Source of the DNA: a virus
Virus record (IMG/VR): IMGVR_UViG_3300045740_000123
Location: 1 to 64,000 of that record
Strand: one strand, 5' to 3'
DNA: 64,000 nucleotides
Shown one piece after another: positions 35,792 to 55,268 of the stretch (positions within the stretch are counted from its first letter, which is position 1; every line of letters begins with the position of its first letter). The notes under the pieces are model-generated. The model saw nothing but the letters and a program-made list of their open reading frames with translations. It was not told the DNA's origin and made no database searches. A program made the translations under genes and the position numbers.

Positions 35792-36395
35792 AGAACTGGG
35801 CGTCTGTACTTGTTGTGCAAACAGCACAGAAGGAGGCAGTATAAGTCCCAGCTTCTGTCCACCTACTCAACTCAAACCATGTCACTTTATCTCGACGAAC
35901 TCACTCTGTTTGATCGCATCAACCTCGCTGCCTGCGCCATGCGCAGAGCATCGGAGAACACACTTGACGGCGATCGATTTCATGGAGAGTACAACAGTGC
36001 TCGTGCATGGAACAAGTACAAGTGTGTCATCACCAAAACGTATTCCTACGTGGATGAAGACTAATGACTAATCACTGTTCAGTACTTGCCATCGAAGATG
36101 CTCAATTCACTGACACTCATGTCACAGTTACAGCTCTTGTTGACGAAATGCGCCTACTCTATCGGGCGACTCGCTTCGATCCTGAAGAGTGGGCTCCTGC
36201 ATTGTGTACAGCAACTGTCGAACTGGATCCAGAGGAACCAATCCCTCTTGATGAAGATGGCTTCTGTACCTATCTTGATCACCTCGATCCTCAATGGCAA
36301 CTCGTTGACATGAGTGACGACTAATCAACTCACTCTAAATTAAACCTACGTCCTGGACATGACGTTAAACTGTCCATTTACTTTAGCTATCAATC

Positions 36396-36665
36396 ATGAA
36401 ACACCTGCTTTCATTGCTTGCACTCAACTTCCTTGTTGTACTGCCAGCTAATGCACAATGGGCCATGACATGTACCAGGGACCCAAACTCATCTGTCAAC
36501 CTACGCAACGGTCCATCCAAGAACAACACCATCATCGCCTCCATTCCAAACAGTCAATACCTCCGCGCATTGGACTGGGTATGGGGCGGTGATCAAGTCC
36601 GTTGGTACCGTGTCGAATACAACGGTCTTGTTGGTTGGATGCGTTCTGATTACCTCTGCCGATGA
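36396..36665 (+). CDS. secreted SH3b-domain protein
   Basis: Signal peptide (..PANA), VNLRNGPS...IIASIPN, WYRVEYNGLVGWMRSDYL. Confidence 0.85.
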   Translation: MKHLLSLLALNFLVVLPANAQWAMTCTRDPNSSVNLRNGPSKNNTIIASIPNSQYLRALDWVWGGDQVRWYRVEYNGLVGWMRSDYLCR

Positions 36666-37063
36666 CAAAGAAGATCATTCTTGGTATCGCTGTCTTCATT
36701 GGTTTCATCATTGCTTGCGCTGGTGTAGCAACTATGCAAATGGTCATGGGTTCTTTGATACCCAATAACCAGCCTGATCCAGACGGCAAGCTTGAACCTG
36801 ATCCTCAGGAGAAATCCAAACAGGAATGGGAAACCAAGCTCAAAGAAGACGGACAATCAGAGTCATCCACTAAACAGGAGCCAACACCACAACCAACGGA
36901 ATCCACACCGCAACAAACACCACTTGTTGTTGAGCAGCCTGTTGCACCGCAACCAGTTCCTGCTCCGCCACCACCACGTGCCCTGACAACAGGTCCTGGT
37001 AACTTTGATGCACCTCCTGCATACTACGCACCGTCTGGCGCCACTGGCCCAGGCAATATGTAA
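36662..37063 (+). CDS. membrane-anchored Pro-rich protein
   Basis: N-terminal TM helix, P/Q/T-rich tail. Confidence 0.65.
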   Translation: MTKKIILGIAVFIGFIIACAGVATMQMVMGSLIPNNQPDPDGKLEPDPQEKSKQEWETKLKEDGQSESSTKQEPTPQPTESTPQQTPLVVEQPVAPQPVPAPPPPRALTTGPGNFDAPPAYYAPSGATGPGNM

Positions 37064-37066
37064 CTC

Positions 37067-37807
37067 ATGAAACTCAGAATGATTGCACTCATCTCAGCCA
37101 TTGTTGGCAGCAGTTCTGCTGTTGCAGTACATACTGTCAACAACATGATTGCTCATCACAATGAACAGCAAGATCACCTGCGTTCATTGATGTATGCACA
37201 ACCACTGGAGCAAGGGCCTGGTGACATGGCTCTCGCCGTACCAGATGGGATGCTTCCCCTGGATGCAACACCCACTCCTGGTGCGCCTCCTGAGCCAGGC
37301 TCCGAGCGACCTGTCATTCAATTCAAGAACAACATCATCCTGCCAACGCCAAGCAAGCGGCCATCCGCAAAGCTGCTGCTGATTCGCACCAATGAAACCG
37401 TTAAGCAAACCAAGGATCCAATCTGGAAACTACAGTTGGTTGCCAACGGTCAAGTCCTGGACAGCATGCCTGCATTAACAGGACGTGCCTCGAAGCAAAC
37501 AGCGAATCGCAACATTGCTGGCAACAAATCACCATTGCCTAAAGGCACATACTCCATCGATCGGTACGGCATTGCCCGTGCACCATTCGATGATCCAGAA
37601 CTTGGTAAAGGATTCTGGGTACCAGTGATTCCTTTGTTCAACACCAATCGTTCAGCCCTTGGCTTCCACCAAGATCCAAGCTGGGGCAAACTCAATGGTG
37701 AGTCCGGTACCAGTGGATGCATTGGTCTGGAATCACCTGAGGCCACAGCAAAGCTGGTTGAATGGATCAAACATTACAACATTCAATTGTTAACAGTTGA
37801 ATCGTAA
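37067..37807 (+). CDS. L,D-transpeptidase-like (YkuD-type) exported protein
   Basis: PLPKGTY, GFH....SGTSGCIGL catalytic-type motif; hydrophobic N-terminus. Confidence 0.7.
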   Translation: MKLRMIALISAIVGSSSAVAVHTVNNMIAHHNEQQDHLRSLMYAQPLEQGPGDMALAVPDGMLPLDATPTPGAPPEPGSERPVIQFKNNIILPTPSKRPSAKLLLIRTNETVKQTKDPIWKLQLVANGQVLDSMPALTGRASKQTANRNIAGNKSPLPKGTYSIDRYGIARAPFDDPELGKGFWVPVIPLFNTNRSALGFHQDPSWGKLNGESGTSGCIGLESPEATAKLVEWIKHYNIQLLTVES

Positions 37808-37872
37808 TGTCATCACGTCCTGAGCACGACGTTAAACTGCTCACCACTACGAACCAACTACGAACTCAACTC

Positions 37873-39600
37873 ATGCATTTCCAACTTCCCTCTCATCTTC
37901 AACAAGAACTCCTGGCTTATGACCCAAAGCTCAAGGCTTTGGTGCGTGAGCAATCACCTAACAAGCCAACCAAGAAAGCAAAGTATCCACTCGGCAACAT
38001 CCCGCATCTCATCCCACATAACGTGGTGCGTGAATCAGATCAGCAAGCTGCGATTGATCACATCAACCAGCAGCTAGCACCAAATCGTTACCGGATATTT
38101 ACCACGCCTGTGGACGTAGCAACTCCTCAGGCCAGACTTAAAGTTATTGCCATCTTGTATCACTATGAACAAGTATGGTACGCAGCATGGCTGCCTCCGA
38201 AGAAAGAAGCTGATCAGTATGTGTATGGCCATGCCTACGCATTCAAGAACACATCAGCTGCTGCTAAAACTGCACCCCATCACATCTGGACCAGCAAAGA
38301 CAAGTGCATCGAGCACGAAGGTGCTCGTGGTGTCCAGACCTTTATTTACTCAATGAACATCACCAAAGGTGATATTGAATCAAGTGAAGGCAGTGGCTGG
38401 CGTGCCTATCAGTGGCAAGCAGCTAACCTTCACTGCCAAAAGGGACGCGAGATCCTTGAGCATTGCGTCCGTCCATATGAAGCAAGCCTACGGGAAGACA
38501 TGCCCACATGGTCTGACTCTCGTGGATTATTTGATCGTATTCGCTGCAAGAACATCTTTGATGCAGCTGATATGCCTCCGATGATGACTAAATGCCTGGA
38601 TATAGAGCAAGGCTTAACTGTTGATAACTTACTTAATGCAGCAATTGAATTCAACAAGAACCCTAACTTTCCATCATCAACGTTTTGTGTACTGGAAAGA
38701 ATCAGTCATATCATTTCCAAGCCAGCAATCAAGAAGCTGTTGCAAGCAGAGCTTGATCGTTGCACCCTTGCATACAATGACCCAAGTAATACTGAGCGCA
38801 AGCCAATTACTCAAGGCTTTAGAACATTTATTCATGTCATTGATTCCATTGATTGGATCAACAAAGTATGGCTTGACTGCCCACTTGATTACTACCAAAC
38901 CTATTACAAAGAACTTCGTTATATCAGACTGAGTCAAGTACGTACAAGCAGCATCAGCACCAACTCAAATGCATTTGTTGGTTGGCTACGTCAGCACATG
39001 CCTGTTGCATCGTTGTTCACAATGCTGCGTAAATATCTTGAAACTTATACACTCAAAGGTATTGATTCAGAAGTTGGTTATCCACGCGTTGGATTCTATG
39101 AACTGAATGACACATTCTCCATGGCAATCCGCATCCTTGACCATGGCAATGAACTCACGCCACCCAAACGGTGGCGCATCAATGAGTTCCATGACTATGT
39201 GCAAGCCGAGTCCTGGAAGATTCAGAATCCCAACGAATCATTGCGTCAAGATCTATTCCCTGAACCCATCAGGGTTACACGCAATGGTGAGACCTGGTCA
39301 TTCTTCCAGCCTGTTGATACACATCAGTTGGCTATGTGGGGTCAGGCCGTACGCAACTGCGTCGGCTCTGCATCACACTATGCCGATGACATCAAGAAGC
39401 GTAAACACTTCATCGTGCTATGCATGATTGATGGCAAGCCCACATTCACCATCCAGCTGGTGGTTGATATGGGTCTGATGTCAGTCAAGCAAATTGCTGG
39501 CGTTGCTAACCAGCGATTGACTGACGAGCAACGTGAAGCTTACACAGAAGCTTTCCGTGAGGTCTTGCAACAACGGGAGAAGCAGCTACAATCTGCCTGA
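37873..39600 (+). CDS. PcfJ-domain protein
   Basis: QLAMWGQAVRNCVG..Y, TIQL...VKQIAG.AN; ATG 37873 after leader pseudoknot preferred over 37807. Confidence 0.75.
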   Translation: MHFQLPSHLQQELLAYDPKLKALVREQSPNKPTKKAKYPLGNIPHLIPHNVVRESDQQAAIDHINQQLAPNRYRIFTTPVDVATPQARLKVIAILYHYEQVWYAAWLPPKKEADQYVYGHAYAFKNTSAAAKTAPHHIWTSKDKCIEHEGARGVQTFIYSMNITKGDIESSEGSGWRAYQWQAANLHCQKGREILEHCVRPYEASLREDMPTWSDSRGLFDRIRCKNIFDAADMPPMMTKCLDIEQGLTVDNLLNAAIEFNKNPNFPSSTFCVLERISHIISKPAIKKLLQAELDRCTLAYNDPSNTERKPITQGFRTFIHVIDSIDWINKVWLDCPLDYYQTYYKELRYIRLSQVRTSSISTNSNAFVGWLRQHMPVASLFTMLRKYLETYTLKGIDSEVGYPRVGFYELNDTFSMAIRILDHGNELTPPKRWRINEFHDYVQAESWKIQNPNESLRQDLFPEPIRVTRNGETWSFFQPVDTHQLAMWGQAVRNCVGSASHYADDIKKRKHFIVLCMIDGKPTFTIQLVVDMGLMSVKQIAGVANQRLTDEQREAYTEAFREVLQQREKQLQSA

Positions 39601-39888: not shown

Positions 39889-40275
39889 ATGAAACTCTAT
39901 GGCCCATACACTCGCAAAGATGGCAGACAACATGTCATTCTTTACGAAAATGGCAAACGCAAAACAGTAAGCTATCCCAAGTATTTACTTGAGACAAAGC
40001 TTGGTCGATCCCTTTTGCCTCATGAAACCTGTGATCACATTGATGGCAATCCTTTAAACAATTCTTTAGATAACTTGCAACTGCTATCCAGAGCGGATAA
40101 CATACGCAAGCACGCAGCTCTTTTACCTGCAGAGCTGGGAACTTTCACTTGTCCTATTTGTTTGTGTTCATTTACAAAACGAATGCATAACACTAGGCAC
40201 AATCGAAAGCAAGGAAAACGTGGACCTTATTGTTCACGTTCATGTGCAGGTAAAGCTGGCCGACTAGCCCAATAG
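39889..40275 (+). CDS. HNH homing endonuclease
   Basis: LGRSL..HETCDHIDGNPLNNSLDNLQLLSR..N; CPIC...YCSRSC; stop lies in tRNA D-loop. Confidence 0.88.
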   Translation: MKLYGPYTRKDGRQHVILYENGKRKTVSYPKYLLETKLGRSLLPHETCDHIDGNPLNNSLDNLQLLSRADNIRKHAALLPAELGTFTCPICLCSFTKRMHNTRHNRKQGKRGPYCSRSCAGKAGRLAQ

Positions 40276-40335
40276 GAAGCAGGCAAGCGACTTAAAATCG
40301 CTCAAGTCCCGGTTCGAATCCGGGGTCGGCTACCA
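40258..40335 (+). tRNA. trnL: tRNA-Leu(UAA), short variable loop, encoded CCA
   Basis: GGCCGAC/GTCGGCT acceptor, AGCGA-CTTAAAA-TCGCT anticodon arm, CCCGG-TTCGAAT-CCGGG T arm, ACCA end. Confidence 0.9.
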
Positions 40336-41068: not shown

Positions 41069-41473
41069 ATGGCATTCCAGAAGCCAATCCTTCCTGACTG
41101 TCCTCAATGCAATCAACCTGAACTCAAAGTTATTGAATCCAGGAAGACTGGTCTATCAACAAGACGCCGTAAGAAATGCGGTTGCTGTGGCTACAAGGTT
41201 ACAACCCATGAAGTTACAGCAGACTTCTTTGAAGAAGCCAAGCGCAATCTTTATCTTGTTGAGCAGCTCCACAAACTCATGGCAAATCAACCACTCACAT
41301 CCGGGGTGGTTCCACCCCCATCTGGGGTGAGTCCATCTGAGTTCAAAGCACTCAACAAATGCAGTGACTGCCAGCACAACAAAGATGGTTGTTACTGCGC
41401 TTTTGATTTCCCTGAGTACGACACTGCTGAGTCGTACGATTGCAATCACTTTCAACTCTGGAAATCCAAATGA
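41069..41473 (+). CDS. NrdR-like zinc-ribbon protein
   Basis: CPQC....KVIESR.....RRRKKC..CGYK.TTHE. Confidence 0.7.
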   Translation: MAFQKPILPDCPQCNQPELKVIESRKTGLSTRRRKKCGCCGYKVTTHEVTADFFEEAKRNLYLVEQLHKLMANQPLTSGVVPPPSGVSPSEFKALNKCSDCQHNKDGCYCAFDFPEYDTAESYDCNHFQLWKSK

Positions 41474-41817
41474 CACAACAACATCCCATCACCCCATCTC
41501 CCGAGCTAATACAGCAGTGGATTGATCAATCTTTACTTGCTATCAATTATGACCATTGTATTGCTATCCGGGCCGCCCAATGGGGCGCAGACCAAGAGCT
41601 GGAGGCTTGCTGTGAATGGATTGCTGATTGGTACGGACATGGATGCAATGAGGTAATTGACAATCTCCGCACCTCACGCCGCCCCAAGCAGCCGAGCTTG
41701 AAGGAGCAGGCGCTGAAAGAACTGGCATGGGTTGACGAGCATCTCGACATGCCGCTGCACAACCACTGCAACGCTATTCACGCAATCCGCCGCGCACTGG
41801 AGCAGCTCGATGACTAA
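41470..41817 (+). CDS. MTQQHPITP-family small protein, copy 1
   Basis: Shares blocks with 44250 and 45702 ORFs. Confidence 0.7.
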   Translation: MTQQHPITPSPELIQQWIDQSLLAINYDHCIAIRAAQWGADQELEACCEWIADWYGHGCNEVIDNLRTSRRPKQPSLKEQALKELAWVDEHLDMPLHNHCNAIHAIRRALEQLDD

Positions 41818-42052
41818 CTTCCAAGCACTTTGCGCTGAACTGGTGAAACAACTGGAAGGATGGCAGTGCTATGCGAGCCCGGATGGCCCCAACGCTAAGG
41901 TGCTGGACCGCGCCCGAGCCGCCCTATCCCAGCCCAAGCCGCCGAGTTTGAAGGAGCAGGCGCTAGAGGCGTTAGCTCACATTCTCAATAACAGCTCTAC
42001 TCAACTTGGTGCAGACACCATCCGCCGCGCACTTGAACAACTCCCTGATTAA
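41810..42052 (+). CDS. mosaic small protein sharing SLKEQAL/IRRALEQL blocks
   Basis: PKPPSLKEQAL...IRRALEQLPD. Confidence 0.65.
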   Translation: MTNFQALCAELVKQLEGWQCYASPDGPNAKVLDRARAALSQPKPPSLKEQALEALAHILNNSSTQLGADTIRRALEQLPD

Positions 42053-42355
42053 TTCAATGACAACCAAACGCCAGTACGACTACACCATTGGTGATCGCGT
42101 AGCAGAGCGTCCCAAATCCCATGGTATCTTTGCTGTACGCAATGAAACCAAAGATCGTATTCAGCAGTACAGGTCCCAGCGCTATGGCACTGTTGTTGGT
42201 ATTAATCTGAAACCAAACAAGTCAGGTGCTAAGCAGAAGTTCTTGCTGATCAGGTGGGATCATTTGCAGACTCCCACGGAACATGCACAGATGAGGATCT
42301 GTCCTGCTGATCAACTCCAGCGTTTACAATCTGAGGGTTATGGATTCGAAGTCGA

Positions 42356-42712
42356 ATGAAAGTCGACAAGCCATGGGGTTGGTACAACACACTGACCCCA
42401 GAACAAACCTCATTGTTCCGTGGCTACCTCGTTAAAGAACTACACATCAACAAAGGCCATCGCCTTAGCCTTCAGCGCCATCAACACCGGTGTGAACACT
42501 GGATTGTTGTCAATGGCGAAGGATTGTTTGAGTGTGATGGCCGCACACAAATTGTTAATGAAGGTACTCACTTGTACATTCCAAAGCAATCAGTCCATCG
42601 CCTCACTGCAACAAACCAAGACATTCGCATTGTCGAAGTTCAATGCGGTGAAGTAATCTCTGAAGACGACATCGAACGTTTAGAAGATGATTATGAACGA
42701 TCACAGAACTAG
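42356..42712 (+). CDS. mannose-6-phosphate isomerase type II-like cupin
   Basis: KPWG.Y, RLSLQRH.HR.EHWIVV.G, IVEVQ.G....EDDIERLEDDY. Confidence 0.88.
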   Translation: MKVDKPWGWYNTLTPEQTSLFRGYLVKELHINKGHRLSLQRHQHRCEHWIVVNGEGLFECDGRTQIVNEGTHLYIPKQSVHRLTATNQDIRIVEVQCGEVISEDDIERLEDDYERSQN

Positions 42713-42898
42713 CATGATTCTTCAGTCTATTGTCTGGGGTTTAATCTTTGGAACATTCATTGTACTTTTCATCGCAATGATCTTTGATACGCCAGAAACA
42801 ACTAGAGAGAAATTCAAAGTTGTTGACAACTACAAAGGTTGCGATGTTGTTCAGTACAATGATCCATCACAACGCTATCAGTACTTCTTGCACTGCTC

Positions 42899-43537
42899 AT
42901 GAACGTTGACTTAACTTGGGTAACGCCCAATGCTGAAGAACTCATCGTTAAGATGGCACGGGTCTCAGCACCTAAGAACCAAGACAACATGGAGACAGCT
43001 CCAAAGTTGTTGCGTTACTTGATCAAGCACAAGCACTGGTCGCCATTTGAAATGGCAAACATGTGCGTAGAAATCGAGACGACGCGTGCAATCTCACCAC
43101 AGATTCTTCGTCATCGTTCGTTTAGCTTCCAGGAATTTAGTCAGCGTTATGCAGACACAAATGAACTGGGCTCAGCTGTTATTCCGCATCTACGTAGACA
43201 AGATCAGAAGAACAGGCAAAACAGTATTGATGACTTATCTTCTGATCTTGTTGGTACTTATTATCGACGCATCAGTGAACTGTATGAGAACGCAGAACAT
43301 CTGTATCGCGAGATGGTAAGCAATGGTATTGCCAAGGAATGTGCCCGTTCCATTCTGCCGCTATCGACACAGACCCGTCTCTTCATGAACGGTACACTTA
43401 GGTCTTATATACATTATTTACAAGTGCGAACTGACCCAAGTACTCAGCTTGAGCATCGACAAATTGCCTTGGAAATCAAAAAGATTTTTTGCCAACAGTT
43501 TCCAATTATTGGTGAGGCTGTATTTAGTGATCAATGA
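42899..43537 (+). CDS. thyX: flavin-dependent thymidylate synthase
   Basis: HWSPFEM, QILRHRSFSFQEFSQRY, AKECAR, TQLEHR. Confidence 0.95.
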   Translation: MNVDLTWVTPNAEELIVKMARVSAPKNQDNMETAPKLLRYLIKHKHWSPFEMANMCVEIETTRAISPQILRHRSFSFQEFSQRYADTNELGSAVIPHLRRQDQKNRQNSIDDLSSDLVGTYYRRISELYENAEHLYREMVSNGIAKECARSILPLSTQTRLFMNGTLRSYIHYLQVRTDPSTQLEHRQIALEIKKIFCQQFPIIGEAVFSDQ

Positions 43538-43995: not shown

Positions 43996-44014
43996 CCATT
44001 ACCACTAATCACCC

Positions 44015-44230: not shown

Positions 44231-44249
44231 CCGCTTCTACTAATCACCT

Positions 44250-44486: not shown

Positions 44487-44500
44487 TCACCTTCACTTCT

Positions 44501-44734: not shown

Positions 44735-44760
44735 GCCCAGTAGTCACCTTCCCTAAATGA

Positions 44761-45297: not shown

Positions 45298-45304
45298 GGG
45301 TTTT

Positions 45305-47597: not shown

Positions 47598-47818
47598 AGA
47601 ACCTTGACGGGAATGAAAGATCGGATAGCATCTGTCCGTCTTTCATTCTTTTATGTCTTACATCATTGCCACTTGGAAAAATGGCAGGCCATTTGCCATT
47701 ACTGCGGCAACCACTCAATTCGAATTAATTCCGTTAGATTCAGATGTAGCACTTAACAAGATCTTCTCTCATCCCTACAGGGCTGGAGCACAACAGATCT
47801 TGTCTTGGATTAATAAAA

Positions 47819-49684
47819 ATGACACGGACCTTGCCACTGAACAACTCGAAGTTCGAGATGAAGCCCAGTTCCGTAAATGACAAGTGGTATGTCTTTGACA
47901 TTGAGACGGATGGACTTTATGACAAAGCTTCCAAAGTTCACTGCATTGTCCTCTATGAGGTCAACAGTAACAGCGTTTTGTCTTTTGGTCCTGACGGCAT
48001 TGACAATGCTCTTGAGTATCTGCGTAACGCTGATGTTCTTATTGGGCATAACATCTGCTTTTACGACATCCCAGTCTTAAAGAAATTATTCCCAGACTTT
48101 GAAACTAAAGCACGCATCATCGACACTCTCATTTGTTCACGTTTGATCTGGCCCAAGGAGGTTCTCTATGAGCTTGACATCGAACAATATCCGGAAGTTC
48201 CAAAGGCAAACCGTGGATCCCCATCACTTAAGGCATGGGGATGGCGATTGGCCAGTCATAAAATCGACTTCAAGGACTTCACGGAATACTCCCAGGAGAT
48301 GCTCGACTACTGCATCCAGGACGTGGCAGTTACCTTTAACCTATGGCAACTCATTGCTTCTCAAAACTATGCAGACTCCGCCCTTCTCTTGGAGCATGAC
48401 TTTGCTCTGGCGATTAACCGACAAATTAGATCAGGTGTTCCTTTCGATTTGGATGCTGCTCTTGATTTGGTGGATGGCCTCCGAGCAAAAGAAGCAGAAC
48501 TTGAAGCACACCTAAAACAAATCTTCCCACCAATCAAACATGAAACAACATTCATTCCAAAAGTAAATAATAAAAATCGTGGTTATGTCAAAGGAGAACC
48601 TTTCACTAAGGTCAGCTATGAAGAGTTCAATCCTGGATCTCGTCAGCAGATTGCTGATCGACTGCGCAAAAAGTACGGATGGACTCCAGAGAAAACAACT
48701 GAGAAAGGAAATCCAAGTATTGATGATGAAGTATTAGAACGGCTTCCGTATCCAGAAGCTAAGCCATTGGCAGAATATATGTTGATTAAGAAACGTCTTG
48801 GTCAAATTGCTGATGGTAACAATGCTTGGATCAAACTATTCAACAACGACACTGGTCGTGTACACGGCGACCTTATTACTAACGGTTGCATTACTGGGCG
48901 CTGTGCACACCGCAATCCAAACATGGGTCAGGTCCCAGCAGGTTACTCCCCTTATGGAAAAGAGTGCCGAAGTTTGTTCGTTCCTCCTGACGGGTGGGAT
49001 CTCATTGGCATTGACGCTAAAGCACTTGAGCTACGTTGCCTTGCTGGATATCTCGCCTACTGGGATGATGGTGAATACGCAAAGCTGGTAACAGATGAAT
49101 CAATTGATATCCATACCTACAACCAAAAACAATTTGGTGTAGAGACCAGGGACATCAGCAAGCGTTTGCTCTATGGCATGCTCTATGGATGCGGCTCTGT
49201 AAAAGCTGGATCAATCATTGATCCCAATCTTAAAGATGAAGATGAACTGCGCATTCTTGGTCGTGATGCCATCGATGGTTTTATGCGTGGGGTGCCTGCA
49301 CTAAAAGCACTCAAGATGGAAATCGATAAAACCATTGGCCTACGTGGTTATCTCATTGGTCTTGATCGTCGTCAGTTGTATTGTCGTTCTGCATTTAAAG
49401 GACTAAATGTATTACTGCAATCAGCGGGCGCTATCTTAATGAAGCAAGTTGTTATTAACATCCAGAACAACATCAAAACAAACCTTGGTTTGGAATACGA
49501 TCACGACTGGCAACAACTGTTGATGGTGCATGATGAAGTGCAGCTAGCTTGCAAACCTGAATACACCGAAGCCATCCGGGAGCAGGCCATGCTTGCTTTC
49601 CCGCAAGCACAGGAATTCTTTGGATTCCGTTGCAGTATTGAGGGGGATTCCAGGGTAGGATCCGACTGGTCGCAGACCCACTGA
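47819..49684 (+). CDS. polA: T7-like family A DNA polymerase (start probably 47858)
   Basis: Exo FDIETDG, GHNI..YD, YCIQDV; polymerase DAKALELR, KRLLYGMLYG, VHDE. Confidence 0.95.
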   Translation: MTRTLPLNNSKFEMKPSSVNDKWYVFDIETDGLYDKASKVHCIVLYEVNSNSVLSFGPDGIDNALEYLRNADVLIGHNICFYDIPVLKKLFPDFETKARIIDTLICSRLIWPKEVLYELDIEQYPEVPKANRGSPSLKAWGWRLASHKIDFKDFTEYSQEMLDYCIQDVAVTFNLWQLIASQNYADSALLLEHDFALAINRQIRSGVPFDLDAALDLVDGLRAKEAELEAHLKQIFPPIKHETTFIPKVNNKNRGYVKGEPFTKVSYEEFNPGSRQQIADRLRKKYGWTPEKTTEKGNPSIDDEVLERLPYPEAKPLAEYMLIKKRLGQIADGNNAWIKLFNNDTGRVHGDLITNGCITGRCAHRNPNMGQVPAGYSPYGKECRSLFVPPDGWDLIGIDAKALELRCLAGYLAYWDDGEYAKLVTDESIDIHTYNQKQFGVETRDISKRLLYGMLYGCGSVKAGSIIDPNLKDEDELRILGRDAIDGFMRGVPALKALKMEIDKTIGLRGYLIGLDRRQLYCRSAFKGLNVLLQSAGAILMKQVVINIQNNIKTNLGLEYDHDWQQLLMVHDEVQLACKPEYTEAIREQAMLAFPQAQEFFGFRCSIEGDSRVGSDWSQTH

Positions 49685-49947
49685 TGGATTACCTTGACAT
49701 CACCAAAGTAGAGCAGTGTCCGGCCTGTGAAGTCAGCTGGATTCATTCCTATATTCCTCAAGAATCAATCGATAAAGGTTATTATTCACCTGATTCGAAA
49801 TTCTTTAGCCGTGTTATTGGTGTGGAGTATTTGGGCACTGACCGTGTTAATCATTATCAGTGTCCTGATTGTGGTAAATGTTGGAATCGAAAAGGTGAGA
49901 TGATTGAAGTTAAACATAAACCAGTTGATCTCTCGTCCTTGAGGTAA
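49684..49947 (+). CDS. small Zn-ribbon protein
   Basis: CPAC ... CPDC. Confidence 0.6.
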   Translation: MDYLDITKVEQCPACEVSWIHSYIPQESIDKGYYSPDSKFFSRVIGVEYLGTDRVNHYQCPDCGKCWNRKGEMIEVKHKPVDLSSLR

Positions 49948-49984
49948 GACGTTAAACTGCCTCTCACACAAACTGTTTGAATCC

Positions 49985-50797
49985 ATGAACCAAGTCTTTG
50001 TTTGCGCTGAAACTACTGAACAGCCCCGCGAGGTTTACACCTCAGCAACCTCAACTGCAATTCGATGCAATGTAATGTTGCCTCCTGTTGGCAACAAAGC
50101 AGCAACACCAATCGAACTTAACGTCTACGGCAAAAACTCTGAGCGTTTTGCACGTACACCTAAGGGTTCTCAGATTTACATCCATGGTGCAAAGCTTCGT
50201 TTTGATCTAGAGACCAGGACTTATTCGTTGCATGGTGGCATCATTGCTCCTGTTAACGAATCTTTCCCCATCTTTAATACAGTCATCCTCTCTGGACGCT
50301 GCGTTAAAGACATCAGTCAAGATGATTCGCGTGCCTTTAAGGCAACGGCTGATGGCCTGATGATCTGCAATCAAACCCTCTCCGTTAACACCGGACGTAA
50401 TCAAGCAGATCTCTTTAACTTCTACGCCATCAACTCAACAGATGACAAGTTAAACAATGCAGAACTGCTTGTTAACTTCACCCGTAAGGGCACTGGTCTG
50501 ACGATCCAAGGTCGTCTGGTTACAGATTCCTGGACGGATAAAGAAACCAAGGAACGTCGTATTGCAACCAAGATTCAATTGGTTTCGATGACGCTTGCTC
50601 CCAAGGTGGGAGATGGTGCTGCCAAAACGGTAACCAATCAGACAACCGTGACCTCTGATGACAAAGTAACCTCCCTCTGGGGTGGTCGCCGTGCAGAAGA
50701 AGCTGGTGACCCATGGACCCAGGCATCTGGTGGTGGTCTGCCTGATCTGCCAGGTCACTACGGTGCAGCACCAGATATGGAAGAGGTTCCATTCTGA
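49985..50797 (+). CDS. ssb: single-stranded DNA-binding protein with two OB-like halves
   Basis: MNQVF../NTVILSGR, KGTGLTIQGRL..DSWTDKET, EEVPF tail. Confidence 0.75.
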   Translation: MNQVFVCAETTEQPREVYTSATSTAIRCNVMLPPVGNKAATPIELNVYGKNSERFARTPKGSQIYIHGAKLRFDLETRTYSLHGGIIAPVNESFPIFNTVILSGRCVKDISQDDSRAFKATADGLMICNQTLSVNTGRNQADLFNFYAINSTDDKLNNAELLVNFTRKGTGLTIQGRLVTDSWTDKETKERRIATKIQLVSMTLAPKVGDGAAKTVTNQTTVTSDDKVTSLWGGRRAEEAGDPWTQASGGGLPDLPGHYGAAPDMEEVPF

Positions 50798-51092
50798 TGA
50801 CAACTCCAACTCACGATCAATTCACTCTGCTCTACGAAGATGAAGACACCAAGGTTCTTCATGAATTCAAAGGGGTCGTCGCTGACGATGTGATTCAACA
50901 CATGATTGATTTCCTCAAAGGGTGTGGGTACATGGAAGGCAGCATCTTTGAAACCATGAAGGAGCTGTCTGAGATGTACTTCGATTCATTAAGTACTCAG
51001 CAGTACGTGATGAAATGGGACAAGACTGAGGCAGAATGAGGCCACGTCCTGGGATGACGTTAAACTCATCCACCTCTGACTACGAAACAACC

Positions 51093-52109
51093 ATGACTTC
51101 TTCCATGACCACCAAGAAAACTGCTGCGCTTGCAACCCGTGGACTCGACTCCTTCCGGATGTTTCAGTCCAAAGAATTTGTATCTGGTTACCAGAACCTC
51201 GTCACCATTCAACCCCTAAACAAATCAAAAGTACGCGGATGGTTCATCCGTAAATCTGATCTTGATACCTGCGGTTGGACTGCAACTGAAGATCAGTTTG
51301 CTAAAGGTTCTGTCATTTGGGATTACAAGCAAACCTTTGGCATGGCTCCCAATACTTCCGTTGAAGAAGGCCTTAACTTCACTGAGCCACGCATTCAAAT
51401 CCTGCTGCGTTCTCCTCTGATGGTTGAAGAAACCACAGGGATGCGTCAAACGATTGGTACCTTTGAACACCCAGAGGTCAAGGAATTATTTGATGCTGAC
51501 AAGATTGCAGCCGACCTTGCCAACAGCAAGGGCGAGATGTACAAGCGTAAGTACAGCGTGCGCACTAAGTACCTCATCTACATCGTGACTGAGGACAACA
51601 AGCGTGCCCATAAGATCCCGATGGTCCTTACCCTCAAAGGTCTGAACGGCACTGATGTGTCCGATAAAGTCAAGATGTACGAGAAGGAAATGTCCAAGTG
51701 CCTGAGCAAGGCTCTGGATTCCGAAGTGCCCCTTGCCTTCAATGAAAAGTTCTACGCCACTACCGTATTTGCTCCGGTACTTGCCAATGAAATGCGTGGA
51801 GCCAACAACGTTGAGATCTGCGCAATTGAATCTTTTGACATCCCTGATTACAGCGACCAAGATGCCGCCATCGAATCGCTGAGCCGCATGTCGATTCCTG
51901 ATGAAGATCGCGAATCAACCTGGAAGTTTCAGGAAATGTTTGGTGATTACATCAACCAGCATGCACGGCAGGATGCAGAGAAACTTGGCGGTGCTTATGG
52001 CATCAAGCAAGGCGTGGAGATCCTGCCCGTCTCCCGCACCACCGATGCAGTCGATGTGAAAGCACTGCCTGCTCGTGATCCCCTCACCGGAGAGGACGAT
52101 TCACTTTGA
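51093..52109 (+). CDS. conserved cyanobacterial/cyanophage protein (DUF5895-like)
   Basis: RTKYLIY.V..DNK..H.IP.VLTLKG motif; ATG after leader pseudoknot. Confidence 0.5.
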   Translation: MTSSMTTKKTAALATRGLDSFRMFQSKEFVSGYQNLVTIQPLNKSKVRGWFIRKSDLDTCGWTATEDQFAKGSVIWDYKQTFGMAPNTSVEEGLNFTEPRIQILLRSPLMVEETTGMRQTIGTFEHPEVKELFDADKIAADLANSKGEMYKRKYSVRTKYLIYIVTEDNKRAHKIPMVLTLKGLNGTDVSDKVKMYEKEMSKCLSKALDSEVPLAFNEKFYATTVFAPVLANEMRGANNVEICAIESFDIPDYSDQDAAIESLSRMSIPDEDRESTWKFQEMFGDYINQHARQDAEKLGGAYGIKQGVEILPVSRTTDAVDVKALPARDPLTGEDDSL

Positions 52110-52361
52110 TGTAATGTCGGGGTTTCCCAAGTCGTTTTGTTCAACAGCTACGTTGTTGAAGATAAACATATCTTGGACTAAACCCCGTATTACGCCTTGA
52201 CGTTGAGTGGCAATCCTCGCCAAGAGGGTTGCCATTTCTCGTAACGTACTAACCGAATCACATTCTTGAATGGAACGTTTGATTTTTTCTTCCCAAAACT
52301 TATCATCAAGACTCGGTTCTATTTGAAATCTAGTTAAAGGTACGTATTTAATTTCGTCCAT
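52101..52361 (-). CDS. small helical protein
   Basis: 86-aa ORF. Confidence 0.5.
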   Translation of the reverse strand: MDEIKYVPLTRFQIEPSLDDKFWEEKIKRSIQECDSVSTLREMATLLARIATQRQGVIRGLVQDMFIFNNVAVEQNDLGNPDITSK

Positions 52362-52685
52362 TTTGTATTAAATTGTTACGCTTATTCTAATGCCTCAGTA
52401 AAAACCATTTCCAAACTTTACAAAGTATCAAGATTTACAGTCATGGACAACCCTGAAAAAGCTGCAGTTAAAGAAGGACTAACTACAGCTGTTATCGGCA
52501 GTGTTGCTGCCACACTCCTTGCTAATCCTGTTTGCTGGGCTGCTGTTATCTATGGAACGTATCGGATGGGTAAGGCAGCTTACCGGCGGGCCAAGATCAA
52601 TGCTAAGATCAAGGCGAACAAAGCGCTGGAGGACACGTCCTTCTGGCACGTTTGATTCCCACTCAACTCAATCCAACTCAAACCA

Positions 52686-53630
52686 ATGTCCGTCCAACAT
52701 CAGACTGAACTCAACTCGGCGCAAGCTCTTATTTATTCTCGCTCCAACATCCGGCGGGCGTATCCGGAATTTGATGACACCTCAATCGCTGGCATTTATC
52801 TGCGAGGCGATCATTGTCTTGTGGTGCGTCATGATGGCACTGAGCAAATCTACGACCGGTCACTAATCAAGACCGCGTTTCAGTCTTACACAAACCGTCT
52901 CAAAGATTTCTTTTCTTACCTTGGTCCCAATTACCGTGGCCCTAGTGTATGGCATAACAATGCTTACATTCTTTTTAAGGGCTGGAACTACTCGCACGCA
53001 CTCGGACACCTGACTTCCAATGCCAAGCTTCAGGCGCACTGGGCAGATAAATTCATACATGTATCAGACCCCGAAAAGATCAAAGTGCTCCTTCAGTCTG
53101 ACCAAACGGACTTGGGCCATTTGGTGGCGCCTGACGGACTTCGGCTTCCGAATCGGCCACTTGATATGGACGGTGAATTGGATGATGTGCAAGAACAACA
53201 GTCCTCGTTTGGTGAACCTAGTTGTTCATGTGGGTCCTTTCAACGCCAGCTTTCAAATCTATCTGCTTTCCAAGAAGAGATCCAAGGCTTTAAACCATGG
53301 TGCATCCACCTGACGTGGTTTAACAAATACAGGGAACTGCTGTGCAAGCGCACAGATGTACGGAATGCGAGTCCCAGCGGCACACCAGATAAGTGTGTTG
53401 CCTGGTGGTATGCACCGCCCGCTGATCACATCAGTGATGGACGCTTTGTTCTGCTCCATACCAAGTCCGGTGCTCAAGCTCCCCTCTCCCACTGGCGTAC
53501 CTACAAACCACAAGAGGTGTTCACACAACACCATGCCTGGGATCTTTTCTTCAATATGATGGAGGCTGGTTACACACCATTCCCTGGTGTCTCATTGCCA
53601 CAACTCAAAGCTGCTGTTAAAAAGCAATGA
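52686..53630 (+). CDS. SWIM-like Zn-finger protein
   Basis: CSCGSF...WCIH. Confidence 0.6.
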   Translation: MSVQHQTELNSAQALIYSRSNIRRAYPEFDDTSIAGIYLRGDHCLVVRHDGTEQIYDRSLIKTAFQSYTNRLKDFFSYLGPNYRGPSVWHNNAYILFKGWNYSHALGHLTSNAKLQAHWADKFIHVSDPEKIKVLLQSDQTDLGHLVAPDGLRLPNRPLDMDGELDDVQEQQSSFGEPSCSCGSFQRQLSNLSAFQEEIQGFKPWCIHLTWFNKYRELLCKRTDVRNASPSGTPDKCVAWWYAPPADHISDGRFVLLHTKSGAQAPLSHWRTYKPQEVFTQHHAWDLFFNMMEAGYTPFPGVSLPQLKAAVKKQ

Positions 53631-54011
53631 CGGACGAAGAGTTGTACGAGCATGCACTATCACTTGCTATGAAAGTATCCGAGCAACCCATGATGTTGTC
53701 CAACGGCAAATACTCTTTGCACCTTGAGGTTGATGAAGACACCTACTGGGGTCTGATTAAACTTGGCGCAGAGATCAGGACTGATTGTGAAACCTATGCA
53801 GAAAACATCCTCATTGGGCATGTCGAATCCGGACTCGATCGACAAGCTACAGATTGAATGCATTGATGAAGAGGATGGTTCCGCAACCATCCGTATTGAT
53901 TGGGATGAAACAGATCCTGATCTCCAATGGTGGACCGACTTGGGTCCAGAAGGACAAGAAACGTTTATGATTGATGCGCTAACAAACGCACTCGATTCTT
54001 ACTCTTAGGTT

Positions 54012-54647
54012 ATGGCCTTCCAAAGCGTCTGGTATGAGACTGAACTTCCTTCTGAAGTCATCAGGCTTGTTGAATCTGTACTCGAAGAAAAGTATGACGA
54101 AGATCTAATCAACTCTGTTGTTGGTGAAGGGGGCGGCGGTGTCATTAATGAAAAGGTTCGCAAAGCAAAAAATGCTTGGCTTCCTGCCAGCCATTGGGTT
54201 GCAGGTTTTGTTATGCATTATGTCAACTTAGCTAACCTCCAAAACTTCCGTTATGACATCATTGGTCTGGATGGTCAATCTGCTCAGTACACCGTCTATG
54301 ACAAAGGTGAGTTCTACAACTGGCATGTAGATCAAGGCATCTCATCTTTCTATAAACCTGAACATAACAATGGTCATGGTTTTAGTGAAGAAGTTATTAA
54401 GGATGACATCATCCCCAAAGGTGAGCTGGTCCGTAAACTTTCGTTCTCTCTTCAGTTATCTGATGAAGATGAGTACAAAGGTGGTGATCTACAAATCATG
54501 GATGAAGGTGAATCAATGTATGACGTTCCCAAAAAGAAGGGACTTCTGGTTTGCTTTGACTCCAGGGCTCGTCACCGCGTTACAAAAGTAACGTCTGGTC
54601 GCCGTAAATCCTTGGTAGGCTGGGTCGTTGGACCTCGTTGGCGTTGA
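54012..54647 (+). CDS. 2OG-Fe(II) oxygenase
   Basis: QYTVY..GEFYNWHVD, RKLSFSLQLS...EY.GG, HRVTKVTSG.RKSLVGW. Confidence 0.92.
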   Translation: MAFQSVWYETELPSEVIRLVESVLEEKYDEDLINSVVGEGGGGVINEKVRKAKNAWLPASHWVAGFVMHYVNLANLQNFRYDIIGLDGQSAQYTVYDKGEFYNWHVDQGISSFYKPEHNNGHGFSEEVIKDDIIPKGELVRKLSFSLQLSDEDEYKGGDLQIMDEGESMYDVPKKKGLLVCFDSRARHRVTKVTSGRRKSLVGWVVGPRWR

Positions 54648-55057
54648 CCTTTCTTCGAATCATGGCATTTGATACCTACGGACTTAGTACTGAACAGTAC
54701 GTAAAGTTCTTCAAAGACAACGTCAGGCTTTCTGCCAGGCTTTATCTGGATACTTGCAACATCCTTTCTGCTGAAGGTGCTGGCAATGTTGATTTCAAAA
54801 CAGTTCTTGATATGTATCAAGAAGCTGTCTATGCCGCTAACGATGACTGTCGCAAGTACCAAAAGATCAACAACCCTGAAGCCATCAAGGACAATGACAT
54901 CTTTGGCTTGACCCCTTCCAGGGAAGAGCTGATGGAGGAAATCAAGTCTGTTAACGCCAAGGTCGAAGCCTTGACTGACTACATTGCTGAGTTGGTCAAG
55001 GTCACAGCCAATGGTCTCAACGGCTTGGCCGAAACCTTTGATGAGGCACTGACTTGA
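54638..55057 (+). CDS. hypothetical protein
   Basis: 139-aa ORF. Confidence 0.55.
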   Translation: MALTFLRIMAFDTYGLSTEQYVKFFKDNVRLSARLYLDTCNILSAEGAGNVDFKTVLDMYQEAVYAANDDCRKYQKINNPEAIKDNDIFGLTPSREELMEEIKSVNAKVEALTDYIAELVKVTANGLNGLAETFDEALT

Positions 55058-55268
55058 CAGGCCTGGTAGACTGACGGTTCCCACCGGGAGTGGGCGTCCT
55101 GGTCATGACGTAAAACTGACCACACCTTCTAATCAAATTCAACTCATGTTTGAAACTTTTCTTGGCGCTCTTATTCCTGTTGTTAAAGATTTACTTTGGG
55201 CAGCGGCAGGCATGCTGCTGACCTACGCAATCAACAAAATTCAATCTCACTTCCAACACATCTGAGTC

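Follow-up and report, generated by a model that had tools for sequence, protein, structure and literature searches.

In the window, the 64,000-nucleotide stretch of DNA analysed here from an S-EIVl-like cyanophage, a short element recurs between early and replication genes, raising the question of whether its copies form one family of structured RNAs and what such a family might do in the phage message. The element is a knotted RNA fold of 28-31 bases present in six copies, all on the + strand and all at the coordinates given by the first-pass annotation. The copies are co-oriented with the genes, lie between ORFs and belong to a long co-directional early/replication message. The six are copies of a compact H-type RNA pseudoknot with a stem 1 (S1) of 4-5 bp, a loop 1 (L1) of one conserved C, a stem 2 (S2) of 6 bp and a junction (L2) of 0-1 nt; loop 3 (L3), a conserved UUAAAC or UAAAAC, crosses stem 1.

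Copy 1 (36349-36376, +) reads CGTC C TGGACA T GACG TTAAAC TGTCCA, with S1 at 36349-52/36361-64, L1 C at 36353, S2 at 36354-59/36371-76, L2 T at 36360 and L3 TTAAAC at 36365-70. The TAA stop upstream ends at 36324, leaving a gap of 24 nt. Downstream (36377-36398), a 19-nt G-poor spacer with an RNAfold energy of 0.0 kcal/mol leads to the ATG at 36396 of a gene for an 89-aa SH3_3-domain protein (36396-36665, +). Copy 2 (37816-37843, +; CGTC C TGAGCA C GACG TTAAAC TGCTCA) has S1 at 37816-19/37828-31, L1 C at 37820, S2 at 37821-26/37838-43, L2 C and L3 TTAAAC, and begins 8 nt after the stop (37805-07) of a YkuD-like ORF. Its 29-nt C/A-rich spacer, which contains repeated CTACGAAC, runs with the ATG over 37844-37875 (+) to a PcfJ-like gene (37873-39600, +). 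The true ATG of this gene, 37873, is set by an N-terminus conserved in relatives, M(H/Q/E)F(Q/R)LP. Copy 3 (46765-46793, +; TGGAC C TGAGCA A GTCCA TAAAC TACTCA) bears out the described switch of stem 1, which is wholly swapped to TGGAC (46765-69) and GTCCA (46778-82) with full compensation; L1 C is at 46770, S2 at 46771-76/46788-93 has one C.A mismatch, and L3 is TAAAC. The same GGAC/GTCC stem 1 and TGAGCA/TACTCA stem 2 recur in orthologous GP88 leaders (L028, L046 and L099). The downstream segment (46794-46829, +) comprises a 33-nt spacer (-2.4 kcal/mol) before the ATG (46827, +) of the GP88-family gene and opens with a small hairpin, UAAGC-UCA-GCUUA (46794-46806), making copy 3 the only one in the window with a hairpin at the place of coremin hp2.

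Copy 4 (49934-49963, +; CGTC CTT GAGGTA A GACG TTAAAC TGCCTC) has S1 at 49934-37/49948-51, a 3-nt L1 (CTT), an S2 of GAGGTA (49941-46) and TGCCTC (49958-63) with one U.G pair, and L3 TTAAAC. The TAA of an upstream 87-aa ORF (49945-47) falls inside the knot, and a 21-nt spacer (49964-49987 with the ATG, +) precedes the SSB gene (49985-50797, +; ATG 49985). Copy 5 (51045-51072, +; CGTC C TGGGAT GACG TTAAACTC ATCCA), with S1 at 51045-48/51056-59, L1 C and L3 TTAAACTC, is, like copy 3, imperfect as described: stem 2 consists of five pairs (T50-A72, G51-C71, G52-C70, G53.T69 and T55-A68, numbered by the last two digits of the coordinate) with A54 bulged. It begins 5 nt after a TGA stop (51037-39), and its 20-nt spacer (51073-51095 with the ATG, +) leads to the true ATG, 51093, of a DUF5895 gene (51093-52109, +) whose N-terminus, MTSSMTTKK, is conserved in L014, L033 and L060. 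Copy 6 (55095-55122, +; CGTC C TGGTCA T GACG TAAAAC TGACCA) has S1 at 55095-98/55107-10, L1 C, S2 at 55100-05/55117-22, L2 T and L3 TAAAAC. A hairpin, CCCAC-CGGGA-GTGGG (55079-55093), lies directly 5' of it, and the upstream stop ends at 55057. The segment that follows (55123-55266, +) holds a 23-nt spacer without any G and a 39-aa ORF (55146-55266, +) beginning MFETFLGALIPV, with a Gp157-like gene next, at 55269. This small MFE... ORF accompanies the same knot in 23 related loci, mostly as TGGTCA/TGACCA with a TAAAAC linker.

Knot-to-ATG distances for copies 1-6 are thus 19, 29, 33, 21, 20 and 23 nt, in line with the roughly 20-35 nt first estimated, and the gene labels assigned at that stage (SH3_3, PcfJ, GP88, SSB, DUF5895 and the 39-aa ORF) hold. 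None of the ATGs has a Shine-Dalgarno (SD) sequence. Of the 143 nt in the six spacers 9 are G, and five of the spacers have a predicted folding energy of 0.0 kcal/mol. ORF-finder starts at 37807 and 51036 would put knots in coding sequence and were rejected, since the conserved N-termini begin 3' of the knots, at 37873 and 51093; copies 2 and 5 therefore lie outside coding sequence. No sigma-70-like promoter or terminator was found adjoining the six knots, none has a U-tract or terminator-like tail, and no start codon or SD sequence in the window is occluded by a knot.

Chance does not account for the copies: the pattern CGTCCT-N5-8-GACGTWAAAC has 5 matches in the window, against 0.00 expected from 100 dinucleotide shuffles. 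A covariance model, which the first-pass annotation had proposed building, was made from other phages with copies 1, 2 and 6 in its seed (50, 49.5 and 43.3 bits, respectively). Beyond these it recovers copy 5 (29.4 bits, E 1.4e-5) and copy 4 (28.7 bits, E 2e-5), and, run over both the window and the other 21 kb of the genome, it finds no further copy at E < 0.2. A candidate seventh copy at 56120 was rejected: it lies inside coding sequence, has G in place of the conserved C and is missed by the model. Both stems show compensatory changes across several hundred related copies. In 92 distinct copies picked without constraint on the 3' strand of stem 2, 94.6% of stem 2 cells pair, compared with 18-51% when the partner is slid, and double-sided changes number 93, compared with 32 in shuffles. 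Fifty copies, chosen on features other than stem 1, have a non-canonical stem 1, and in 44 of them it pairs at all four positions. G.U pairs outnumber A.C by 66 to 7, which identifies the sense strand as the one that folds. The stem covariation, the unpaired C and the AAAC linker described earlier are all borne out, with the single L1 nucleotide and the linker AAA invariant among phage copies.

The knot is common to the same leaders in cultured S-EIVl and dozens of uncultured relatives of this cyanophage, where it is kept while both stems have changed. The same module recurs beyond this group, both in unrelated phages and in bacterial genomes (Bacillota, Saccharibacteria, Chloroflexota, Alphaproteobacteria and Phytoplasma), and one good copy occurs in a Vibrio phage lineage. 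RNase J is encoded in all five sampled bacterial genomes with the motif, and the commonest variant has no match in 28 Gb of E. coli genomes. Of the first interpretation, sense-strand H-type knots in the leaders of a conserved set of early/replication genes are supported; a regulon signal specific to this phage is not. Across all contexts the tightest positional rule concerns the upstream stop rather than the downstream ATG. In 283 copies from other loci, the stop-to-knot gap has a sharp floor at 5 nt (49 copies at 5 nt, 25 at 6 nt and 21 at 7 nt, with 5 at 0-4 nt), and 42.8% of copies lie at 4-10 nt, compared with 3.6% of random positions. This floor is a new observation and is compatible with a fold that need not be opened by a terminating ribosome. 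The upstream ORF shows no frame preference, since the gap is commonly 5, 6 or 7 nt. Within the cyanophage group the knot typically precedes an SD-less AUG by 18-30 nt, over a G-poor spacer without predicted structure, and the knot-to-AUG distance is 15-30 nt in 80%; in other hosts the knot directly abuts strong SD sequences or precedes terminators, and in some bacterial copies it is stem 2 that abuts an SD sequence or a U-tract. A U-tract lies directly 3' of the knot in 24 copies. At one locus (L195), hammerhead-like cores come after four of the copies; two of these cores score as Rfam type III hammerheads, with cleavage about 6 nt after the knot.

Among known RNAs the closest relative is coremin (xrRNA-C), a motif that occurs in beny-, cucumo- and numerous further RNA viruses of eukaryotes (PMC6546385, PMC10520033) and stalls the exonuclease Xrn1 (PMC6546385, PMC10520033, PMC10321173). 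The phage knot and the coremin 20-mer of PMC10520033 have CGUCC...GACGUUAAACU in common. They share a (C)GUC/GAC(G) hairpin-1 stem with a pyrimidine-purine closing pair, a pyrimidine (C) as first loop base and an identical linker, UUAAACU, whose tolerated U14A variant equals the UAAAAC of copy 6. A15-A17 and C18-U19, which coremin cannot do without, do not vary among the 92 phage copies, and both motifs are found as single or tandem copies in intergenic or untranslated RNA. The differences are that the phage loop is C-U-G-R-G-Y-A-N (7-10 nt) rather than YGAD or YGNNAD, that it pairs with the sequence after UUAAAC in a 6-bp Watson-Crick helix, turning the coremin spacer A20, C21 into paired bases, and that the obligatory second hairpin is absent in five of the six window copies. 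The phage knot, moreover, is carried by a DNA phage with a host that lacks Xrn1, and any such activity in it is a candidate one. Because the loop consensus and the downstream second hairpin both depart from coremin, we call the phage knot a distinct variant rather than a member. The first-pass annotation could not assign it to a named family; Rfam 15 has no match to it, but a named relative exists in coremin, itself absent from Rfam, with partial membership. Coremin of the classical hexaloop type is present on large DNA-virus contigs too, in one case adjoining a phage-type knot (L112).

Besides stalling Xrn1, coremin and its Watson-Crick variant slow ribosomes during scanning (about five-fold for coremin) and stimulate frameshifting (by 22-30% at -1 for coremin). 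These activities depend on the single L1 nucleotide and the linker AAA, and hp2 is needed for Xrn1 resistance in both forms. The xrRNA-WCC group, comprising selected variants and Sanxia picorna-like virus 5 (PMC10321173), shares with the phage knot an unchangeable single-nucleotide L1 and an A-rich loop predicted in the stem-1 minor groove, and it is an obstacle to ribosomes without hp2, as the phage knot would be. It differs in that stem 2 has 3 bp against 6 bp in the phage, where it starts one nucleotide later (after C18), that L1 is G rather than C and that hp2 is still required for Xrn1 resistance. The BWYV frameshifting pseudoknot, of similar size, does not stop Xrn1, so a pseudoknot alone is not enough. 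Other viral xrRNAs block bacterial RNase J1 in vitro, and such blocks are therefore not enzyme-specific. These flavivirus and dianthovirus RNAs resemble the knot as folded viral RNAs that mechanically block 5'-to-3' exonucleases, but they are larger ring-forming folds without sequence similarity that yield non-coding RNAs from 3' UTRs. Cyanobacteria possess RNase E as well as RNase J (PMC7283877).

Luteovirus-type -1 frameshifting knots and the T4 gene 32 leader knot are likewise compact and H-type, loop 1 being a single base and loop 3 rich in A, and the T4 knot also lies in the leader of an SSB gene. The phage knot differs in lacking a slippery site and an upstream frame preference, and the gene 32 knot is a single autoregulatory site rather than a multi-gene module. 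Bacterial mRNA stabilisers, such as the 5' stem-loop of the ompA leader, the SP82 5' stabiliser and intercistronic REP hairpins, are comparable as cis elements, located within or between cistrons, that determine how stable each mRNA segment of an operon is; they are simple hairpins or ribosome-binding sequences, not a pseudoknot family conserved across phyla.

We tentatively propose, at a probability of about 0.4, that the knot serves as a mechanical roadblock or insulator between cistrons and most likely protects the downstream message, because its core is common to a plant-virus RNA that is a physical barrier to ribosomes and to RNA-degrading enzymes. Of the four functions offered by the first-pass annotation, a 5' exonuclease block is the one with outside support, on account of this same equivalence to coremin. 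The knot occupies the ribosome-free gap between two cistrons and, as a self-contained structure, would stay folded during translation of both. It would halt enzymes moving 5' to 3', in the cyanobacterial host the RNase J exonuclease and the 5'-end-dependent RNase E, so that after an upstream cut the downstream cistron (SSB, PcfJ-like, GP88, DUF5895, SH3 or the small MFE peptide) would retain an intact, protected 5' end and leader. The output of these genes would then be higher or longer-lasting than that of neighbours on the same transcript. The covarying stems and their retention in orthologous leaders, the co-oriented position between ORFs away from promoters and terminators, the 5-nt floor, the unstructured spacers, the invariant L1 and AAA shared with coremin, and the distribution with respect to RNase J and E. 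coli are all consistent with a roadblock. Against it stand the missing hp2 in five copies, the inability of the BWYV knot to stop Xrn1, the tighter link to the upstream stop across unrelated hosts, and the good copy in a Vibrio phage lineage, Vibrio lacking RNase J to our knowledge.

Some knots, moreover, end as the 3' end of the upstream RNA, and in a possible though not probable reading the knot protects the 3' end of the upstream cistron, much as a terminator hairpin or an intercistronic REP element does. After a spacer cut, termination or ribozyme cleavage, it would be the last structure of that RNA and block 3'-to-5' exonucleases. The stop-anchored position, the 24 U-tracts (stem 2 plus a U-run looks like an intrinsic terminator) and the L195 cleavage sites point this way, but no window copy has such a tail, the AUG distance is also tight in cyanophages, and the known activity of coremin is directed against 5'-to-3' movement. 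The barrier may instead be to ribosomes, a translational insulator that stops post-termination ribosomes sliding into the next cistron and keeps the SD-less leader unpaired with upstream sequence for independent initiation. The effects of coremin on scanning and frameshifting and the G-poor, unstructured leaders agree with this; the 5-nt floor places the knot at the mRNA entrance of a ribosome on the stop codon, and the L195 knot and hammerhead cassettes resemble engineered ribozyme insulators. We nevertheless consider it doubtful, as compaction and the need not to be unwound explain the floor equally well, and where the knot abuts a strong SD sequence or precedes a terminator an SD-less leader is not at issue.

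An operator for a phage- or host-encoded RNA-binding protein, making the six genes a translational regulon like those of T4 gene 32 and RegA, would suit the constant set of orthologous genes across S-EIVl-like phages, the SSB gene among the targets and the invariant loop and linker positions. It is unlikely: the module is shared by unrelated phages and by the chromosomes of bacteria from at least five phyla, among which no common protein is obvious, and this argues against a phage-specific binding protein behind the protein-binding site suggested earlier; because stem sequences vary freely, such a protein would have to recognise the shape and a small number of bases. The small riboswitch suggested alongside it, a ligand-sensing pseudoknot comparable to preQ1-I or SAM-II, is very unlikely. 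The H-type fold, its size, its conserved unpaired bases and the bacterial copies whose stem 2 abuts an SD sequence or U-tract would be in keeping with one, but six copies per genome before unrelated genes argue against it, no riboswitch in Rfam 15 matches even at E <= 10, nothing in the window is occluded, and with 10 of 28 nt paired in each strand and a 0-1 nt junction no obvious pocket is left. That the element is a DNA signal, a phage promoter or other protein-binding site with incidental complementarity, is scarcely credible. The conserved core of about 23 nt does keep a fixed distance from the genes that follow it, TAAACT is similar to a -10 hexamer and TTGACT lies upstream of a second copy at L112, but a promoter would not be expected to show compensatory changes in two interleaved helices, the G.U excess indicates selection for pairing on one strand, and no -35 partner lies at the proper spacing in the window. 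Whether or not it acts as the roadblock that we favour, this knot fold, present in no RNA catalogue, is widespread in phages and bacteria.

The six H-type RNA pseudoknots (hereafter knots) proposed in the first-pass annotation were all recovered, on the + strand, at 36349, 37816, 46765, 49934, 51045, and 55095. These copies, numbered 1-6, respectively precede genes for SH3_3, PcfJ-like, GP88, SSB, and DUF5895 proteins and a 39-aa small ORF. Their common plan, 5' to 3', comprises stem 1 (S1), one unpaired C (loop 1, L1), the 5' strand of stem 2 (S2), a junction of one base, the 3' strand of S1, a linker (loop 3, L3), and the 3' strand of S2. S1 is the 4-bp helix CGUC/GACG, with a fifth A-U pair possible in some copies, the 5' strand of S2 is 6 nt and mostly U-G-R-R/Y-Y-A, and the linker is UUAAAC or UAAAAC. 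Copies 1, 2, and 6 are perfect knots, and copy 4 has an L1 of 3 nt (CUU) and one U.G pair. Copies 5 and 3 had been described as imperfect and do carry defects, a bulge in copy 5 and one C.A in S2 of copy 3, whose S1 is wholly different yet complementary (UGGAC/GUCCA). The core pattern occurs five times in the window, against 0.00 expected from 100 shuffles. A scan of the window for perfect knots of the same geometry returned two further sites, at 14589 and 56120. The covariance model described below gives no match at 14589, and a seventh copy at 56120-56151 was rejected because it lies within coding sequence, has G as L1, and is missed by the model.

Covariation in both stems supports the fold. 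A search of IMG/VR with a pattern fixing S1, the linker, and, within S2, the first base alone found at least 116 loci, with ~14 chance matches expected by our own estimate. Among the matches listed (141 instances), the unconstrained 3' strand pairs with the loop at 6/6 positions in 98 and at 5/6 in 35. In the 92 distinct copies among the matches listed, 94.6% of S2 cells pair, a share that falls to 18-51% if the partner strand is offset by 1-3 columns; double-sided changes number 93, against 32 in shuffles, and four S2 pairs have AU, GC, UA, and CG alternatives. Since the search pattern had fixed S1, this stem was examined in a separate set of copies picked by L1, S2, and linker alone. Fifty of these have an S1 other than CGUC/GACG, and 44 of the 50 pair at 4/4 positions; the alternatives comprise more than 12 different sequences, such as AGUC/GACU, GGAC/GUCC, UGUG/CACA, ACAC/GUGU, and CUAC/GUAG. 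In the unbiased set G.U outnumbers A.C by 66 to 7, so the sense strand is the strand selected to fold. With two interleaved helices that each covary, the element is therefore an H-type pseudoknot.

The covariance model, a check suggested in the first-pass annotation, was built from the IMG/VR copies and finds copies 4 and 5, both outside its seed. It also finds six sites in Synechococcus phage S-EIVl, the freshwater cyanophage that is the sole named DNA relative of the window: before the annotated SSB gene, before genes positioned like the window's DUF5895-like, GP88-like, PcfJ-like, and small-ORF genes, and before one additional small gene. When copies are grouped according to downstream protein N-terminus, the same gene retains the knot while both stems vary. 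The PcfJ-like leader, for example, has S2 as UGAGCA/UGCUCA, UGGACA/UGUCCA, UGGGCA/UGCCCA, UAGACA/UGUCUA, or UAAGCA/UGCUUG. The S1 at 46765, noted earlier as switched, is a lineage feature rather than an accident, since GGAC/GUCC recurs, as in the window, in the GP88 leaders of three other loci (L028, L046, and L099). Comparison of N-termini also sets gene starts at 37873 (replacing 37807) and 51093 (replacing 51036), so that the knot falls outside coding sequence; during annotation, recognising it corrects such starts. The sequence CTACGAAC occurs twice in the PcfJ-like leader (37846-37868, +), a repeat kept in relatives such as L009, L016, and L017, and once, as CTACGAAA, in the DUF5895 leader.

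The IMG/VR record, of which the window covers the first 64 kb, is 85,144 bp long with direct terminal repeats and a completeness rating of 100%. The region at ~34-56 kb is a single long + strand gene run encoding DNA polymerase A, SSB, and PcfJ-, GP88-, DUF5895-, and Gp157-like proteins. Neither a sigma-70-like promoter nor a + strand terminator was found beside the window knots, which therefore appear to be internal to a long transcript. A query for RNA-sequencing runs covering 46001-56000 returned none. The knot is unlikely to be a promoter, a reading rejected on the lack of a sigma-70-like promoter near any window copy. An intrinsic terminator was likewise rejected for the window, where no U-tract follows any copy and the + strand terminator scan was negative.

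Several other features of the window were recorded. A hairpin, CCCAC-CGGGA-GTGGG (55079-55093, +), abuts copy 6 on its 5' side, and G-rich sequence is also present 5' of the equivalent copy in relatives. Just upstream of copy 3, a gap of 307 nt (46458-46764, +) lacks a convincing ORF and has a folding energy of -106 kcal/mol (z = -3.9 against shuffles), with several strong hairpins; this is possibly a structured leader or a non-coding RNA, and the region 46400-46830 has no Rfam 15 match at E <= 10. The stretch at 41440-46470 (+) holds several paralogous small genes, three of which, at 41470, 44250, and 45702, share their first 26 nt, ATGACACAACAACATCCCATCACCCC, along with internal blocks. Two further recurrent leaders without a Shine-Dalgarno (SD) sequence, CCCAGTAGTCACCTT... 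and TA(A/G)CC..TACCACTAATCACC(C/T)ATG, occur in the same stretch. A tRNA-Leu(UAA) gene lies within the early gene run at 40258-40335 (+), with ARAGORN and Rfam in agreement, and a full-length group I intron (RF00028, 97.2 bits) lies in the other genome arm at 14333-14574 (-). The Gp157-like gene at 55269-56223 (+) is apparently split over two overlapping frames, 55269-55982 and 55612-56223, explicable by a frameshift, by a sequencing error, or by the presence of two genes.

Within the window the knots lie 19-33 nt from the AUG. The spacers after them total 143 nt with 9 G, compared with a regional G content of 22%, and are without predicted structure in five of the six copies (RNAfold 0.0 kcal/mol), copy 3 alone having a 5-bp hairpin. 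No SD sequence was found in the window knot leaders.

Placement relative to the upstream gene was analysed in 283 structure-defined copies gathered from all retrieved loci, for which the reversed-sequence control gave 24. The distance from the upstream stop to the first base of S1 has a hard floor at 5 nt: 49 copies lie at 5 nt, 25 at 6, and 21 at 7, with only five in total at 0-4 nt. Gaps of 4-10 nt account for 42.8% of copies, compared with 3.6% of random positions in the same loci. In a smaller class, which includes copy 4, the upstream ORF ends on the knot's own UGA or UAA, with gaps of -8 and -14; the upstream-stop gaps in the window are 24, 8, -14, 5, and 37 nt. Gaps of 5, 6, and 7 nt place the knot in all three frames relative to the upstream gene, which rules out a recoding signal (-1 frameshift or readthrough). 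In the mRNA channel of the ribosome, ~5 nt is the nearest a structure may sit to a stop codon in the A site without being unwound, and the knot therefore lies as close to the terminating ribosome as it can. Of the copies in the cyanophage class, 80% have an ORF start 15-30 nt from the knot, which is thus also just clear of the initiating ribosome. A U-tract follows 24 of the 283 copies, none of them in the window.

The Rfam search suggested earlier leaves the knot without a family: at the gathering score, Rfam 15 matches only the group I intron and tRNA in the whole window, and 36300-37900 gives no match at E <= 10. Neither search returned preQ1-I or another small pseudoknot riboswitch, and there was no Rfam match in the window to Pistol or other small self-cleaving ribozymes. 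A literature search gave no report of the knot sequence, or of coremin or a coremin-like RNA, in phages or bacteria, and the S-EIVl papers, judged by title, held nothing relevant.

Coremin is the xrRNA-C of eukaryotic RNA viruses (PMC6546385, PMC10520033); GUCC and GACGUUAAACU follow one another in the same order in its 20-mer, as quoted in PMC10520033, and in the phage consensus. According to Dilweg et al., coremin requires a hairpin 1 whose loop is YGAD or YGNNAD, then a conserved spacer that tolerates changes at U13-U14 but none at A15-A17, C18, U19, and A20, and a second hairpin. This second hairpin, of at least 3-4 bp and directly after the spacer, is needed for Xrn1 resistance. In later work Dilweg et al. 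selected Watson-Crick variants, with pairing between the loop and the spacer end, found a single L1 base to be essential, and reported that scanning ribosomes are slowed by coremin, which also drives -1 frameshifting.

Hairpin 1 of coremin, (C)GUC/GAC(G) with a pyrimidine-purine closing pair, is matched by CGUC/GACG in 5/6 window copies and 213/283 related copies, while the compensated UGGAC/GUCCA of copy 3 keeps the C-G closing pair. A15-A17, C18, and U19 are also present, as UUAAACU or UAAAACU in all canonical copies and UAAACU in copy 3; in the copy alignment of the matches listed, A23-A25, C26, and T27 are invariant, partly fixed by the search pattern. The loop differs, reading C-UGGACA-U, C-UGAGCA-C, and similar in the window: its first base C fits Y, but its second is U rather than G, and its last, where D excludes C, is nonetheless C in copy 2 and in 14/92 copies among the matches listed. 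In place of A20, C21, and the fixed 10-nt spacer, the knot has positions that vary and pair with the loop in S2. The second hairpin is absent from five of the six window copies, copy 3 having its 5-bp hairpin at that place. Lacking the loop consensus and usually also the second hairpin, two defining features of coremin, the phage knot is therefore not a member of the family. The antiparallel, covarying S2 (loop 1 with 3' spacer) of the Watson-Crick-type variant xrRNA-WCC (PMC10321173) does recur here, with four pairs showing double-sided changes, but is longer (6 bp) and shifted in register by one. L1 is G in the described xrRNA-WCC variants, whereas here it is a single invariant C, as in BNYVV-type coremin, with CUU in copy 4. 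The phage knot can be described as a long-S2 Watson-Crick relative of coremin.

Classical hexaloop coremin itself was found by pattern scan at 112 IMG/VR loci, including ~19 large DNA-virus contigs (22-159 kb, some of them giant-virus bins); at L112 it directly follows a phage-type knot. On four large contigs (L254, L266, L269, and L294, two of them giant-virus bins) it reads CGUC-CGNNAU-GACG-UWAAACUA and has tRNA-gene-like sequence directly downstream, the acceptor stem of which could stand in for the second hairpin. Tetraloop coremin was found by pattern scan on small contigs only, which are probably RNA viruses.

Named phages with the knot have Synechococcus, Microcystis, Nostoc, Paracoccus, Mycobacterium, Arthrobacter, Bacillus, Lactobacillus, Streptococcus, Moorella, and Geobacillus-type hosts. 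By our own arithmetic, ~35 chance matches are expected for the pattern used on bacterial genome contigs, so only copies whose unconstrained S2 pairs were counted; at least 5/6 S2 pairs form in 80 of the 106 genome-contig matches. Well-paired copies are mostly from Bacillota, Saccharibacteria, Chloroflexota, Alphaproteobacteria, and Phytoplasma. The commonest knot variant is absent from 28 Gb of E. coli genomes, and two gammaproteobacterial genome matches, with S2 unpaired, look like chance. RNase J is encoded in all five carrier genomes sampled. In this unbalanced sample the correlation of the knot with RNase J in the host is not clean, since a Vibrio phage lineage with a compensated copy is a counter-example to a strict link. 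This copy, in Vibrio phage D456 g1 (L223 4001-4027, equivalent to OZ195695.1 55528-55554), has S1 as UCUC/GAGA (DNA TCTC/GAGA). It lies within a 1.1-kb stretch, flanked on either side by co-oriented gene runs, whose only annotated ORFs are tiny and on the opposite strand; the annotation there is doubtful.

A Firmicutes bacterium CAG:95 contig (L195) carries four knots on the - strand, each directly followed by a hammerhead-like core, in units at 2089-2176, 3071-3158, 5096-5118, and 5647-5669. Two of the four cores score as type III hammerhead ribozymes (RF00008, 50.7 and 49.7 bits), and the predicted cleavage site is ~6 nt 3' of the knot. Tandem arrays were also seen: L092 (4616-4800) has three knot-plus-hairpin/U-tract units of ~75 nt each, and L112, L136, L150, L196, and L206 have back-to-back knot pairs with different S1. 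In Erysipelotrichaceae and Bacilli MAGs (L127, L147, L151, L170, L175, L184, and L212), a helix of TATTACCT (upstream) with AGGTAATA (downstream SD region) encloses the knot, which looks like an SD-sequestering leader built around it; S2 is weak in this group.

The knot is a conserved RNA pseudoknot, kept outside translated sequence in many unrelated hosts and located between the terminating and the initiating ribosome. Taken together, this points to a target common to all bacteria (RNases, the ribosome, or RNA polymerase) and away from a phage-specific protein or metabolite; operation as a protein operator or as a riboswitch is unlikely. The single most likely function, with a probability of roughly 0.4, would be as a barrier to 5'->3' decay that protects the downstream cistron. 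We rate it so by analogy, because the look-alike coremin mechanically blocks 5'->3' enzymes in a direction-dependent manner and because xrRNAs also stop bacterial RNase J1. Protection of the 3' end of the upstream cistron is a minor possibility, and an insulator of ribosomes or translation is similarly doubtful; both are kept alive by the knot's close tie to the upstream stop, by the U-tracts, and by the L195 hammerhead cassettes. All three are variants of a roadblock between cistrons.

More tentatively, phages and bacteria may own an xrRNA, with the knot as a prokaryotic counterpart of coremin, homologous or convergent. Such an element would block RNase J as well as 5'-end-dependent RNase E, and phages would employ it, sometimes together with hammerhead ribozymes or tRNA-like modules, to divide polycistronic messages into segments with programmed stability. 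The window holds one very clear instance of the motif. New here are the 5-nt floor between stop and knot without frame preference, tests of both stems and of the strand on unbiased sets, the hammerhead adjacency, classical hexaloop coremin on large DNA-virus contigs, and the Vibrio phage counter-example.

We know of no solved structure of the coremin fold. The phage version has a long canonical S2 and occurs in hundreds of natural variants; it supports the proposed pseudoknot model of coremin, and its structure would be easier to solve. The knot could, if it acts as proposed, also be built into synthetic operons as a 28-nt stabiliser or insulator of programmable sequence. A roadblock, if real, would give a simple account of differential expression in long phage operons, such as high SSB output. 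To our knowledge, eukaryotic RNA viruses are the only known source of exoribonuclease-resistant RNAs; if confirmed, a coremin relative that is common among DNA phages and in bacterial chromosomes would carry the xrRNA principle into prokaryotes.
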